64,000 nucleotides of DNA from Escherichia coli (GTDB taxonomy: Bacteria; Pseudomonadota; Gammaproteobacteria; Enterobacterales; Enterobacteriaceae): assembly GCF_003334785.1 (NCBI RefSeq), contig NZ_QOWV01000014.1. One strand, given 5' to 3'. Positions 45,000 to 52,823 of this stretch are shown piece after piece (the stretch's first letter is position 1; each line of letters begins with the position of its first letter). Made by a program: the position numbers and the translations under genes. Under the pieces are notes generated by a model. The model ran no database searches. It was not told the DNA's origin and saw nothing but the letters and a program-made list of their open reading frames with translations.

Positions 45000-46670
45000 A
45001 TGGATAATGCAGAACTCGCCATTGGTATCGATCTCGGTACTACCAATAGTTTAATTGCCGTCTGGAAAGACGGTGCCGCGCAATTAATTCCAAATAAGTT
45101 CGGTGAATATTTAACACCATCCATAATTAGCATGGATGAAAATAATCATATTTTAGTCGGAAAACCGGCTGTATCACGGCGTACTTCGCATCCGGATAAA
45201 ACGGCAGCGTTATTTAAACGTGCAATGGGCAGTAATACCAACTGGCGGTTAGGCAGCGACACATTTAACGCGCCAGAACTGTCCTCTTTGGTATTACGCT
45301 CATTAAAAGAAGATGCCGAAGAATTTCTGCAACGTCCGATTAAAGATGTGGTGATCTCCGTTCCGGCTTATTTCAGCGATGAACAACGCAAGCATACCCG
45401 TTTAGCAGCGGAGTTAGCCGGGTTAAATGCGGTACGCTTAATTAATGAACCCACAGCAGCTGCGATGGCGTATGGCCTGCATACCCAACAAAATACCCGT
45501 TCGCTGGTGTTTGATCTCGGTGGCGGCACGTTTGACGTTACGGTGCTTGAGTACGCCACGCCGGTGATTGAAGTTCACGCCTCCGCTGGCGACAACTTTC
45601 TTGGTGGCGAAGATTTTACCCATATGCTGGTCGATGAGGTTTTAAAACGCGCGGATGTCGCCAGGACCACGCTTAACGAGAGTGAACTGGCAGCCTTGTA
45701 CGCCTGTGTGGAAGCGGCAAAATGTAGCAATCAATCGCCATTGCACATTCGCTGGCAGTATCAGGAAGAAACGCGGGAATGCGAATTTTACGAGAACGAA
45801 CTGGAAGATTTGTGGTTGCCGCTGCTCAATCGCTTGCGAGTGCCGATTGAACAGGCGTTGCGCGATGCGCGTCTGAAGCCGAGTCAAATCGACAGTCTGG
45901 TGCTGGTTGGCGGCGCGTCACAAATGCCGCTGGTGCAGCGAATCGCCGTGCGTCTGTTTGGCAAATTACCGTATCAAAGTTACGATCCGAGCACCATTGT
46001 CGCGCTGGGCGCAGCAATCCAGGCCGCCTGCCGCTTACGCAGTGAAGATATTGAAGAGGTAATCCTCACTGATATTTGCCCTTACTCGTTGGGCGTTGAA
46101 GTTAACCGCCAGGGCGTTTCCGGCATTTTCTCGCCGATTATTGAACGAAACACCACTGTGCCCGTGTCGCGTGTAGAAACTTATTCAACCATGCACCCGG
46201 AACAGGATTCAATTACGGTTAACGTCTATCAGGGAGAAAACCACAAAGTTAAAAACAACATTCTGGTGGAATCCTTCGATGTGCCGTTGAAGAAAACCGG
46301 GGCTTATCAGTCGATTGATATTCGCTTTAGTTATGATATCAACGGGTTGCTTGAAGTTGACGTGCTTCTGGAAGACGGCAGCGTTAAGTCCAGAGTGATT
46401 AACCACAGCCCGGTAACATTGAGCGCGCAGCAGATTGAAGAGAGTCGGACGCGGTTATCCGCATTGAAAATTTATCCGCGCGATATGCTCATCAATCGCA
46501 CCTTTAAAGCCAAACTGGAAGAGTTGTGGGCGCGGGCGCTGGGTGACGAGCGAGAAGAGATCGGCCGGGTGATCACCGATTTTGATGCGGCGTTGCAGTC
46601 AAACGATATGGCCCGCGTGGATGAAGTTCGGCGGCGGGCGAGCGATTATTTAGCCATTGAGATCCCATAA
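45000..46670 (+). CDS. hscC: Atypical Hsp70-family chaperone HscC (Hsc62)
   Basis: Track ORF 556 aa, MDNAELAIGIDLGTTNSLIAVWKDGAAQLIPNKFGEYLTPSII...; Hsp70 ATPase signatures (IDLGTTNS, DLGGGTFD) with a short, divergent C-terminal domain. Confidence 0.93.
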   Translation: MDNAELAIGIDLGTTNSLIAVWKDGAAQLIPNKFGEYLTPSIISMDENNHILVGKPAVSRRTSHPDKTAALFKRAMGSNTNWRLGSDTFNAPELSSLVLRSLKEDAEEFLQRPIKDVVISVPAYFSDEQRKHTRLAAELAGLNAVRLINEPTAAAMAYGLHTQQNTRSLVFDLGGGTFDVTVLEYATPVIEVHASAGDNFLGGEDFTHMLVDEVLKRADVARTTLNESELAALYACVEAAKCSNQSPLHIRWQYQEETRECEFYENELEDLWLPLLNRLRVPIEQALRDARLKPSQIDSLVLVGGASQMPLVQRIAVRLFGKLPYQSYDPSTIVALGAAIQAACRLRSEDIEEVILTDICPYSLGVEVNRQGVSGIFSPIIERNTTVPVSRVETYSTMHPEQDSITVNVYQGENHKVKNNILVESFDVPLKKTGAYQSIDIRFSYDINGLLEVDVLLEDGSVKSRVINHSPVTLSAQQIEESRTRLSALKIYPRDMLINRTFKAKLEELWARALGDEREEIGRVITDFDAALQSNDMARVDEVRRRASDYLAIEIP

Positions 46671-46678
46671 ACACGGCT

Positions 46679-46715
46679 GCCGGATGCGGCGTAAACGCTG
46701 CATCCGGCATCGGCG
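46679..46715. repeat. REP unit between the convergent hscC and djlC
   Basis: gccggatgcggcgtaaacgctgcatccggcatcggcg. Confidence 0.75.
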
Positions 46716-46729
46716 CAAAAAACACATCG

Positions 46730-50978: not shown

Positions 50979-51682
50979 AGGTCGCTCATATCCTTAAGCG
51001 TTTCCGGGCATGCAGAATAGTAAGCCAATGGTTGCCAGGACAAGGTAGGGTAATACGCATCATCACTGGCAAATAATTGATAAAACATATCATTGCCGGA
51101 ATCGTCGTATTCTTTACGCGCTAAGAATTCGCGTAATAAAGGCAGATGATCATCTTCGGGAGACTGCCAATATTGCCGACCAAAGGTATAACCGGCAAAG
51201 TATTGCCGCCAGTTACTATAATAACGTAGAGCCCGTAGATGAATGCGCGACTGGATCCATAGACTTTCTTCTTCGCTCAACCAGTTATTAAGTACGCCCA
51301 TTCGGCTTAAAAAACCCATCCGGACATAATCCCAGGCTTTGATTCCCCCTTCGCCACAGCATTCGGCGGTGCTGGCGACAAATTGCGCATAAGCCTGACC
51401 TTGCTCATTTAGTTCAGCAAGATAGTCACGCCATTCACATGGCGAATAACGAAACCAGCGGTGATAAAACCCTGCCAACCGAGCGGCATGACCGTTATCG
51501 ATCATTCGGTGAATTGTGCGCAGCAGGTCATCACGGTCATCAATTCCCCATGAGGAAGAAAGGTCAAAAAAGCATGTACCTAAATACATTTTGGGTGATG
51601 AATGCGAAGGTAAACAGCATTCATTGCGTATTTCCATCGGAGTGGAAAGTGCAAACAATATTTTTTGCGACTCCATGTCCAT
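50975..51682 (-). CDS. ybeR: DUF1266-family protein YbeR
   Basis: Track ORF 235 aa, [53 protein letters not shown]... Confidence 0.88.
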
Positions 51683-51845
51683 ATAATTTATCCTTAAATA
51701 TTCATTAAATGAATATTAGCCGCATTGCGAGGCTCGTTTATTTATACTTTTCTGACGCGACATAATACGCATAAAATAAGGCTTACGCAAAAATGGAACA
51801 CATAAAAATATAATATGTTTTATCTGCAACCATAAGGAAATGATA

Positions 51846-52823
51846 ATGATTTTCACGTCAAGTTGCTGCGATAATTTATCAATAGATGAGATTATCGAAC
51901 GTGCTGAAAAAGGCGATTGCGAGGCTCAATATATTGTTGGGTTTTATTATAATCGCGATAGCGCAATTGATTCTCCGGACGACGAAAAAGCCTTTTACTG
52001 GCTGAAGCTGGCCGCTGAGCAAGGTCATTGTGAAGCACAGTATTCCTTAGGGCAAAAGTATACCGAGGATAAAAGCCGTCATAAAGATAATGAGCAAGCC
52101 ATCTTCTGGCTGAAAAAAGCTGCCCTACAAGGCCATACTTTCGCTTCCAACGCCCTTGGCTGGACACTGGATCGTGGAGAAGCCCCCAATTATAAAGAAG
52201 CGGTTGTCTGGTATCAGATAGCCGCGGAGAGCGGAATGTCTTATGCGCAAAATAATCTTGGGTGGATGTACAGAAATGGCAACGGAGTCGCAAAAGACTA
52301 TGCGCTGGCATTTTTCTGGTACAAACAAGCTGCATTACAAGGCCATAGTGACGCGCAAAACAATCTGGCCGATCTTTATGAAGACGGAAAAGGCGTTGCT
52401 CAAAACAAGACACTCGCCGCATTCTGGTATTTGAAAAGCGCACAGCAGGGTAATCGGCACGCCCAGTTTCAAATTGCATGGGATTATAACGCTGGCGAAG
52501 GGGTGGACCAGGACTATAAGCAAGCGATGTACTGGTATCTGAAGGCTGCCGCTCAGGGGAGCGTCGGCGCTTACGTCAACATCGGTTATATGTATAAACA
52601 CGGACAAGGCGTTGAGAAAGATTATCAGGCTGCCTTTGAATGGTTTACGAAAGCCGCTGAATGCAATGACGCCACTGCCTGGTATAACCTGGCCATTATG
52701 TATCACTACGGAGAAGGAAGACCTGTCGATCTCCGACAGGCTCTCGACCTGTATCGTAAAGTTCAGTCATCCGGAACCAGAGATGTCAGTCAGGAAATTC
52801 GTGAGACTGAAGATTTACTGTAG
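51846..52823 (+). CDS. ybeQ: Sel1-repeat protein YbeQ
   Basis: Track ORF 51840..52823; start taken as ATG 51846 (MIFTSSCCDNLSIDEIIERAEKGDCEAQYIVGFYYN...), 51840 also possible; at least seven Sel1-like repeats by eye. Confidence 0.85.
   Translation: MIFTSSCCDNLSIDEIIERAEKGDCEAQYIVGFYYNRDSAIDSPDDEKAFYWLKLAAEQGHCEAQYSLGQKYTEDKSRHKDNEQAIFWLKKAALQGHTFASNALGWTLDRGEAPNYKEAVVWYQIAAESGMSYAQNNLGWMYRNGNGVAKDYALAFFWYKQAALQGHSDAQNNLADLYEDGKGVAQNKTLAAFWYLKSAQQGNRHAQFQIAWDYNAGEGVDQDYKQAMYWYLKAAAQGSVGAYVNIGYMYKHGQGVEKDYQAAFEWFTKAAECNDATAWYNLAIMYHYGEGRPVDLRQALDLYRKVQSSGTRDVSQEIRETEDLL

Follow-up and report, generated by a model that had tools for sequence, protein, structure and literature searches.

The HscC (Hsc62)-DjlC (Hsc56/YbeV)-DjlB (YbeS) system is the third Hsp70 system of Escherichia coli, and HscC is the least understood of the three Hsp70s of this organism. 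We analyzed the locus that encodes it, at positions 45,000 to 52,823 of a 64,000-nucleotide (nt) stretch of E. coli contig NZ_QOWV01000014.1 (assembly GCF_003334785.1), the whole of which is referred to here as the window. In this locus the genes for HscC and its two J-proteins are accompanied by ybeU and ybeR, which encode DUF1266 proteins, and by ybeT and ybeQ, which encode Sel1-repeat proteins. We report that a DUF1266 gene accompanies the J-protein and HscC genes across bacterial orders, and we examine what part DUF1266 may play in the HscC system.

Reviews of the HscC-DjlC-DjlB system describe an atypical Hsp70, stimulating J-proteins with an HPE motif, a tail anchor, and phenotypes toward Cd2+ and UV (PMC8215388, PMC13254874). 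Specific stimulation of the HscC ATPase by DjlC was described by Kluck et al. in 2002, as summarized in PMC8215388, and stimulation by DjlB is assumed. According to a 2026 review, HPE is the only tolerated substitution of the HPD motif and is typical of DjlB and DjlC (PMC13254874). DjlC is tail anchored in the inner membrane, and its insertion requires the signal recognition particle (SRP), DnaK and YidC; features needed for the interaction with GrpE are missing from HscC; and Cd2+ sensitivity is increased by deletion of hscC or by deletion of djlB and djlC together (PMC8215388). Reviews up to 2026 list the function and clients of HscC as unknown and describe it only with DjlB and DjlC, that is, with two kinds of component, whereas in our comparison DUF1266 is a constant, coupled third member across orders. 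The HscC-system reviews consulted make no mention of DUF1266 or Sel1; Barriot et al. (2020), on bacterial J-proteins, might mention the DUF1266 neighborhood. In the literature searched, DUF1266 occurred in one paper only, as a name in expression tables (PMC7582179). No paper in that literature assigned a function to DUF1266 or to YbeT and YbeQ, in agreement with an earlier reading of this stretch made from its letters alone (the sequence-only reading), which had taken the roles of the DUF1266 and Sel1 proteins to be undescribed. The genes and the HscC-DjlC pairing were known, and what is new is the constant third component DUF1266, a J-protein of approximately 900 amino acids (aa) with a DUF805-type domain as the usual form outside Escherichia, Salmonella, Citrobacter and Klebsiella, and a cassette duplication that predates the split of the genera.

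In the HscA-HscB-IscU system, IscU is handed by HscB to HscA. As at the hscC locus, a specialized Hsp70 is co-encoded with its own J-protein and a small partner, and the J-protein has a non-DnaJ C-terminal domain that, by analogy, could bind the partner. Neither Hsp70 depends on GrpE (established knowledge; PMC8215388). The two systems differ in that DUF1266 is unrelated to IscU and has a fold not found among solved structures, and in that the J-protein of the hscC locus is membrane bound; moreover, the HscA-HscB-IscU system has a recognition motif, LPPVK, while the status of DUF1266 as a client is suggested by analogy. A membrane-anchored J-domain also concentrates Hsp70 at the membrane in the Sec63-BiP, Pam18/Pam16-mtHsp70 and DjlA-DnaK systems, and a tether that works with an accessory subunit may be a further point of likeness. 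The likeness is a functional analogy: homology to these systems is confined to the J-domain, and the hscC locus has HPE rather than HPD and no translocon component.

Conservation of the DUF1266, J-protein and HscC genes

From the arrangement in E. coli, the sequence-only reading had proposed that DUF1266 genes are coupled to J-protein genes in connection with HscC. We compared the E. coli locus with approximately 170 other loci (74 from genomes, 80 from metagenomes and about 10 more distant), searching for the triad from both the DUF1266 and the J-protein sides. The DUF1266-side search, made with a YbeU-like alignment and one genome per species, gave the 74 genome loci, from Escherichia, Klebsiella, Leminorella, Rahnella, Pragia, Erwinia, Limnobaculum, Yersinia, Pectobacterium, Brenneria, approximately 45 Pseudomonas species, Gilliamella and Bowmanella. 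The J-protein-side search of metagenomes gave the 80 metagenome loci.

Both the J-protein gene and the HscC gene were present in 68 of the 74 genome loci, the others being mostly truncated, and every sufficiently long genome locus had the order DUF1266, J-protein and a convergent gene for an HscC-type Hsp70. Among the metagenome loci, DUF1266 lay directly upstream of the J-protein gene in 79 of 80 (the last contig ends there), and HscC was encoded downstream of the J-protein wherever the contig extended. A 4-nt overlap between the DUF1266 stop and the start of the J-protein gene was present in 69 of 74 pairs. Distant DUF1266 members, with profile E values of 1e-16 to 1e-28, were also found in triads, namely in Salinivibrio, a Pseudomonadales metagenome-assembled genome, Thaumasiovibrio, Clostridium carboxidivorans and one metagenome contig. 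The triad therefore ranges over Enterobacterales, Pseudomonas, Vibrionaceae, Gilliamella and Clostridium, where it has another gene order. These data extend the proposed coupling well beyond the E. coli lineage, and they indicate that DUF1266 is co-inherited and, judging from the overlapping reading frames, translationally coupled with the J-protein across orders. We consider it very probable that the three genes form one functional unit.

The arrangement varies at the edges of this range. In C. carboxidivorans P7 (locus L087, 3739-8669) and in a metagenome contig (L177, 2098-6654), the order is Hsp70, J-protein and DUF1266 on one strand; the J-protein of the latter contig has NPE in place of the HPE loop. 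Thaumasiovibrio subtropicus (AP023055.1; L086, 4409-13215) has two tandem DUF1266-J cassettes and one Hsp70 gene, which represent an independent duplication, so that the cassettes have been duplicated at least twice independently. The first J-protein of this species (873 aa) has no HPE motif or J-domain at its called N terminus. A gene for an IbpA-like small heat shock protein lies approximately 78 bp upstream of DUF1266 on the same strand in 22 Pseudomonas loci (for example, L050, 958-1404), which may reflect co-regulation or mere local synteny.

Two paralogous cassettes beside hscC in E. coli

The E. coli segment is 100% identical to that of E. coli K-12 (BW25113), RefSeq uses the same gene names, and the list of open reading frames (ORFs) places the seven genes where the sequence-only reading had put them. 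hscC (45000-46670, plus strand) encodes a 556-aa HscC-type Hsp70 with nucleotide-binding and substrate-binding domains. HscC residues 6-541 align with solved DnaK and BiP chains, with E values down to 3e-93, and its matches to the DnaK and HscA NCBIfam models are partial-score matches below the cutoff. The cassette proximal to hscC consists of ybeU (48178-48885, minus strand), encoding a 235-aa cytoplasmic, all-helical DUF1266 protein with no hydrophobic segment, and djlC (46730-48181, minus strand), encoding a 483-aa tail-anchored J-protein with an N-terminal J-domain carrying HPE at residue 31 and a central DjlB/C-specific domain. The distal cassette has the same design, with the ybeU paralogue ybeR (50975-51682, minus strand; 235-aa DUF1266 protein) and djlB (49551-50978, minus strand; 475-aa paralogous, tail-anchored HPE J-protein).

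DjlC and DjlB are 49% identical over their full length and YbeU and YbeR are 59% identical without gaps, and at the DNA level the duplication has a period of 2797 bp and an identity of 72-77%. Both DUF1266/J-protein junctions have the 4-nt overlap. A 31-mer that spans the ybeU/djlC junction (48175..48205, with the ATGA overlap of the ybeU stop and djlC start at 48178-48181) recurs, with its ATGA overlap, at the ybeR/djlB junction (50972..51002); these are its only two copies (48175 and 50972), against 0 expected by chance. The paralogy of the cassettes and the near identity of their junctions, both noted in the sequence-only reading, are borne out by these comparisons, as are the single hydrophobic helices that it had seen at the C termini of the J-proteins (DjlC residues 458-476, nt 46754-46810; DjlB residues 449-467) and at the N terminus of YbeT (residues 5-23).

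Several database entries with sequence from this locus look mislabeled (OR851168.1, OR845923.1, UniProt A0A077ZGN2 and A0A2X3M2D5); they include two short "phage" records, considered below. An E. coli entry for a 627-aa "Hsc56" protein is a DUF1266-DjlC fusion. An entry named "DnaJ subfamily C member 13" from Trichuris trichiura shares 97% identity with E. coli YbeU-DjlC, suggesting that it is a contaminant.

The J-proteins and their membrane anchors

The Pfam DnaJ model matched DjlB and DjlC weakly (E = 0.002-0.04). A profile of the J-protein family matched solved DnaJ J-domains with an E value of 4e-4, and the HPE motif, at approximately residue 31, was present in 70 of 76 J-protein homologues. 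Membrane segments were found in nearly all gamma-proteobacterial J-proteins of the triad, as a single tail anchor in Escherichia and Klebsiella and as a DUF805-like domain of 2-4 helices in most other gamma-proteobacteria; matches to DUF805 were obtained for 11-14 of the 22 J-proteins scanned, mainly those of the approximately 900-aa type. Membrane association of the J-protein is thus conserved, in one form or the other.

Outside Escherichia, Salmonella, Citrobacter and Klebsiella, the J-protein is approximately 880-920 aa long. The first 430 residues of these long proteins are the counterpart of DjlC and are followed by a region of approximately 350 residues and then by the membrane domain of 2-4 helices. 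This comparison shows that the E. coli J-proteins arose by shortening of a larger ancestral form, approximately 900 aa long and with a polytopic anchor. The Clostridium-type J-proteins have TPR repeats and a DjlB_C_2nd domain and no predicted membrane helix. DjlB_C_2nd is a recent Pfam family, which indicates that curators have looked at the J-protein.

The DUF1266 protein

Residues 41-216 of YbeU match positions 2-175 of DUF1266 (PF06889) with an E value of 4.7e-45, and the better E value of the YbeU/YbeR pair is 4.0e-46. The family comprises at least 1415 cluster representatives at 50% identity. The near-invariant residues W45, H65, W117, D118, R121, R127, E139, W158, G168, W172 and W216 suggest, from their conservation, a binding or active site. 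The gamma-proteobacterial proteins end in a conserved tail, [KR]P[AE]SL.E[FY]DWS, which in Escherichia has the version CPxTLKD[VM]SDL.

Structure prediction of DUF1266 alone, which the sequence-only reading had called for, gave a confident all-helical AlphaFold model from a 74-sequence alignment (predicted local distance difference test [pLDDT] score, 92.9; predicted template modeling [pTM] score, 0.91). A Foldseek search of AFDB50 with this model returned, among the top 50 matches listed, DUF1266 family members only, some of them fused or mislabeled entries, and a DUF1266 sequence profile found no solved relative in the PDB. A weak match (E = 0.005) was also seen between residues 40-221 of YbeU and NCBIfam PRK11380, an enterobacterial hypothetical protein of 353 aa, in its C-terminal half; on this match, the genome may encode another distant paralogue of the DUF1266 type.

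A model for DUF1266 in the HscC system

We lean toward the hypothesis that the triad encodes a membrane-tethered Hsp70 machine in which DUF1266 is an adaptor bound to the J-protein or a dedicated client. In this model, membrane-anchored DjlC or DjlB would recruit HscC via the HPE J-domain and trigger ATP hydrolysis, a step that the literature shows for DjlC. Translational coupling, as read from the overlaps, would have YbeU and YbeR made in fixed proportion to their own J-proteins, and each DUF1266 protein would then bind its cognate J-protein at the membrane, through the central domain specific to this J-protein family. The bound DUF1266 could be a specificity or adaptor subunit that selects clients or, with IscU as a precedent, a dedicated client that is remodeled by HscC. 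The DUF1266-J cassette was duplicated in Enterobacteriaceae before the split of Escherichia, Salmonella and Citrobacter, and two fast-evolving targeting units would share one slow-evolving HscC engine. YbeQ, in the cytoplasm, and the membrane-anchored YbeT of Escherichia may be accessory, lineage-specific scaffolds that possibly recognize conserved C-terminal tails. The locus itself is dispensable, and about one-fifth of E. coli genomes have lost it. We advance more tentatively the stronger proposal that DUF1266 is a new class of Hsp70 component with its own fold, forming the obligatory third subunit, whether adaptor or client, of membrane-tethered HscC machines.

If this stronger proposal is true, HscC-DUF1266 systems are common among gamma-proteobacteria and occur in Firmicutes too, the fast-evolving duplicate cassettes of DUF1266 and J-protein are interchangeable targeting heads for one conserved ATPase engine, and an obligatory DUF1266 subunit gives a handle on HscC function. 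Since DUF1266 is co-encoded and coupled with the J-protein in every lineage examined, it is a specific and cheap-to-test candidate for the missing client or adaptor, and the triad provides a first functional context for a Pfam family of at least 1400 sequence clusters.

Several observations weigh against this model. The Clostridium-type versions have soluble J-proteins and a DUF1266 without the C-terminal tail motif, and therefore the membrane tether and the tail are not universal. DUF1266 also occurs in secreted forms with signal peptides, fused to TPR, Cu_amine_oxidN1 or SLH domains. Such secreted or cell surface forms indicate that the domain is not intrinsically an Hsp70 cofactor and is not confined to the cytoplasm or to Hsp70 systems. 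No fusion of a J-domain with DUF1266 was seen among the 144 best cluster representatives, and no interaction data linking DUF1266 with the J-protein or HscC were found. Finally, growing E. coli contains no detectable HscC, DjlB or DjlC (PMC8215388).

The strict 4-nt coupling, with DUF1266 made first in the gamma-proteobacterial layout, would also be expected if DUF1266, instead of being a client or adaptor of HscC, were the J-protein's own partner: either a holdase keeping the hydrophobic membrane anchor soluble until it is inserted, or an inhibitor that keeps the J-protein masked pending a signal. The tail or polytopic anchors of the J-proteins require targeting, as seen in the dependence of DjlC on SRP, DnaK and YidC (PMC8215388), and the evolutionary relationships of DUF1266 and the J-protein agree. 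However, Clostridium-type loci keep DUF1266, encoded after a J-protein that has no predicted membrane segment, and secreted DUF1266 domains occur without any J-protein. We therefore regard such a role as unlikely.

Sel1 and TPR proteins

ybeT (48987-49541, plus strand) encodes the 184-aa Sel1-repeat protein with the N-terminal hydrophobic helix, and ybeQ (51840-52823, plus strand; RefSeq start, 51846) encodes a cytoplasmic protein of 327 aa with 7-8 Sel1 repeats. Seven repeats of YbeQ matched Sel1 (PF08238) with E values of at most 4e-4, with one weaker repeat; YbeT matched too and aligned to several Sel1 registers of YbeQ at approximately 36% identity. The sequence-only reading had treated the Sel1 proteins as members of the module in general, which is not supported by the comparison. 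Escherichia, Salmonella and Citrobacter were the only genera in which Sel1 was found as a gene of its own; the one Klebsiella locus (L009) lacked such a gene, as did every genome locus from Pseudomonas and from the other taxa outside Enterobacteriaceae. ybeT is an Escherichia-specific insertion between the cassettes, and Salmonella and Citrobacter retain ybeQ, upstream of the distal cassette and divergent from it. TPR domains recur more loosely, as fusions or within the J-protein: TPR-DUF1266 fusions account for at least 5-8 of 43 long DUF1266 proteins, and in one metagenome contig a TPR gene overlaps the DUF1266 gene.

We considered whether the Sel1 genes replace the extra domain of approximately 350 aa of the long J-proteins, and this was rejected by a profile-profile comparison (hhalign probability, 0.1%). 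The extra domain is not Sel1-like, and therefore the enterobacterial Sel1 genes are additions and not split-off pieces of the J-protein. TPR and Sel1 solenoids are associated with an Hsp70 system here as they are in the co-chaperones Hop and CHIP, which bind C-terminal tails, and by analogy the conserved acidic/aromatic C-terminal tails of DUF1266 and HscC could be docking peptides. The Sel1 genes of this locus differ from Hop and CHIP in being restricted to few genera.

Composition, distribution and age of the segment

The variable segment extends in full from the rihA stop to the ybeL stop (44917..52892), with rihA on one side and ybeL-leuS on the other. Its GC content is 46.9%, against 51.8% elsewhere in the window. 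The mean GC content at third codon positions (GC3) is 0.463 for its seven genes, against 0.574 +/- 0.057 for 41 other genes (Mann-Whitney p = 3e-4). The AT richness remarked on in the sequence-only reading is therefore a real departure from the window average. hscC itself, at 50.0% GC, is compositionally ordinary, and therefore the low GC content is due to the other six genes and the very AT-rich divergent intergenic regions; the block at 51-52 kb is the lowest in GC of the window (0.419).

We surveyed 5426 complete E. coli genomes with a 9.4-kb query consisting of the segment plus flanks, at least 80% of which was present in 3664 of them. The variable segment was present in approximately 82% of the genomes. 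The site was empty in approximately 18%, with a rihA-ybeL spacer of 44 bp, and approximately 14% had single-cassette or otherwise reduced forms, some with frameshifts or internal stops. The 44-bp spacer of the empty site in APEC O1 (L004, 2417-2462) holds a REP-like hairpin of its own, CGCCGGATGACATCACGCCATCCGGCG. In E. coli O169:H41 2014EL-1345-2 (L005, 2480-3430), a DUF6985 gene and two small hypothetical genes occupy the site instead of the hscC island, a third allele that marks the rihA-ybeL junction as a variable spot. E. coli GF4 and EC15 (L001, 4731-8026; L002, 7552-8017) are single-cassette derivatives. In one derivative a frameshifted djlC is joined to ybeR and ybeQ has an internal stop, and in the other djlB-ybeR is gone and ybeQ is reduced to a fragment; such forms fit recombination or deletion between the paralogous cassettes. 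Escherichia sp. MOD1-EC7003 (L006, 3648-5003) has a third J-protein gene past ybeQ, split into pieces of 93 aa and 344 aa and apparently left over from a third cassette.

In Salmonella and Citrobacter the locus occupies the same chromosomal site, with two cassettes, a YbeQ orthologue and no YbeT. Across Escherichia, Salmonella and Citrobacter, each cassette is orthologous to the one in the same position relative to HscC (proximal or distal), and the relationships of the DUF1266 proteins and of the J-proteins agree. The locus and its duplication are therefore older than the split of these genera, and the empty E. coli site is best read as a loss, since both cassettes are found at the same site in Salmonella and Citrobacter. 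The borders were free of flanking direct repeats and of mobility genes. The nearest tRNA genes, a cluster of five (Met, Leu, Gln, Met, Gln; window 32680-33162), lie 12 kb from the segment and not at its borders. We rejected a recently acquired foreign island on the grounds of the same-site cassettes in the sister genera and the lack of mobility signatures. Of the foreign-like character proposed in the sequence-only reading, the atypical GC3 and the presence/absence polymorphism hold, and a recent import does not, as the same site is occupied in sister genera.

The locus is subject to silencing. ybeT and ybeU-djlC belong to the H-NS regulon and are activated by SlyA (PMC5797941). EC042_RS03510 of enteroaggregative E. 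coli 042, which we identified as the ybeR orthologue, was upregulated 308-fold at 25 C in an hns mutant (PMC7582179). These features, an AT-rich locus silenced by H-NS and derepressed by SlyA, suggest that it works only under particular conditions.

Silencing, together with protein levels below detection, would also be expected if the E. coli cassettes and Sel1 genes were cryptic remnants without function and the module no more than an inherited gene order. The complete loss of the locus in approximately 18% and its partial loss in approximately 14% of E. coli genomes point in the same direction, as do the strains with a frameshifted djlC or a ybeQ with an internal stop. However, within Escherichia all seven genes are under purifying selection, with ratios of nonsynonymous to synonymous substitution (dN/dS) of 0.02-0.15. 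The values are 0.02-0.03 for hscC and 0.06-0.15 for the six cassette and Sel1 genes, and nonsynonymous evolution of HscC is approximately 3-10 times slower than that of the cassette genes. Inherited gene order cannot explain why the triad and the 4-nt overlap are kept from Pseudomonas through to Vibrionaceae and why the triad occurs in Clostridium as well, and deletion phenotypes have been reported for hscC and for djlB djlC. The selection and conservation data largely refute the idea of functionless remnants, which we regard as highly improbable. We conclude that the segment is an old, H-NS-silenced and often-lost chromosomal resident of Enterobacteriaceae, not a recent import and probably not a defense island.

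Assessment of a role in defense

The sequence-only reading had also suggested a defense-type module. The locus would then be an antiphage or conflict system in which the Hsp70 and J-protein sense or set a threshold for an invader signal and the membrane domain or DUF1266 is the effector, in the manner of abortive infection. Such a role would accord with the presence/absence polymorphism and third allele at the site in E. coli, with the AT-rich, H-NS-silenced character of the locus, and with fast-evolving, duplicated cassette genes beside a conserved ATPase. A complete triad is carried by nonmobilizable plasmids of 130-165 kb in four Erwinia persicina strains (pEP2, NZ_CP022727.1; L091, 8974-14073), the only convincing extrachromosomal triads, and an Imm11 gene adjoins one metagenomic triad. 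Conflict systems that contain Hsp70 have been proposed computationally (Kaur et al. 2020, PMC7159879). These GTPase/tubulin/Hsp70 systems are alike in having an Hsp70 in a patchy multigene module, and they differ in that GTPase, tubulin, vWA, MoxR and effector-associated domains are all missing from the hscC locus, whose Hsp70 is of another subfamily.

However, none of the seven proteins had a significant match in PADLOC-DB; the only matches were two weak, partial ones of the Sel1 proteins to a PtuA model (E = 1e-4 to 2e-3), with no stretch that passes alone. Across more than 150 loci the triad is flanked by genes of a housekeeping kind (LysR, GGDEF/EAL, DusC-like, Map, RdgC, transporters and chemoreceptors), and no defense island setting was seen among these neighbors, which were not screened systematically with defense models. 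The neighbors are syntenic within a genus and differ between genera, and gene order is stable both within Pseudomonas groups and from Escherichia to Salmonella and Citrobacter. Effector domains of the nuclease, NADase, pore-forming or protease type were not detected. A phage collection contained no genuine copies, only two unannotated fragments of 1.5-2.6 kb. ybeT was flagged in a phage screen, but a ybeT knockout left infection by phage Arnold unchanged (bioRxiv 10.1101/2025.12.01.691526), and no paper tying HscC to phage defense was found in the literature searched. Taken together, these results lend no support to a defense-type module, and we judge a role in conflict to be improbable.

Two short "phage" records (1.5-2.6 kb) in fact hold host sequence resembling ybeU/ybeR and look mislabeled. 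Most matches to E. coli "plasmids" were likewise rejected, as the records are 0.7-4.9 Mb long and evidently chromosomal. The E. persicina plasmid triad lies near a ParD-like gene and a second map gene.

Noncoding features and other observations in the window

The ybeU-ybeT divergent intergenic region (48886..48986) is AT-rich and presumably holds promoters, whose location here is deduced from the layout, and the very AT-rich ybeR-ybeQ divergent intergenic region (51683..51839) is a likely target of H-NS binding. Across the segment, terminator-like and promoter-like sites showed no enrichment over shuffled sequence. Where the sequence-only reading had described a repetitive extragenic palindromic (REP) unit and bidirectional hairpins at the edges of the segment, a REP-type palindromic unit is indeed present (approximately 46678-46710; gccggatgcggcgtaaacgctgcatccggca as read from the sequence), but it lies between the convergent 3' ends of hscC and djlC. 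There is one clear terminator-like hairpin, which is GC-rich and lies between the convergent ybeQ and ybeL (52836-52859, plus strand). Elsewhere in the window, another gene of atypical composition, a 252-aa ORF at 13108-13866, has the lowest coding GC content after ybeT (GC, 0.426; GC3, 0.373).

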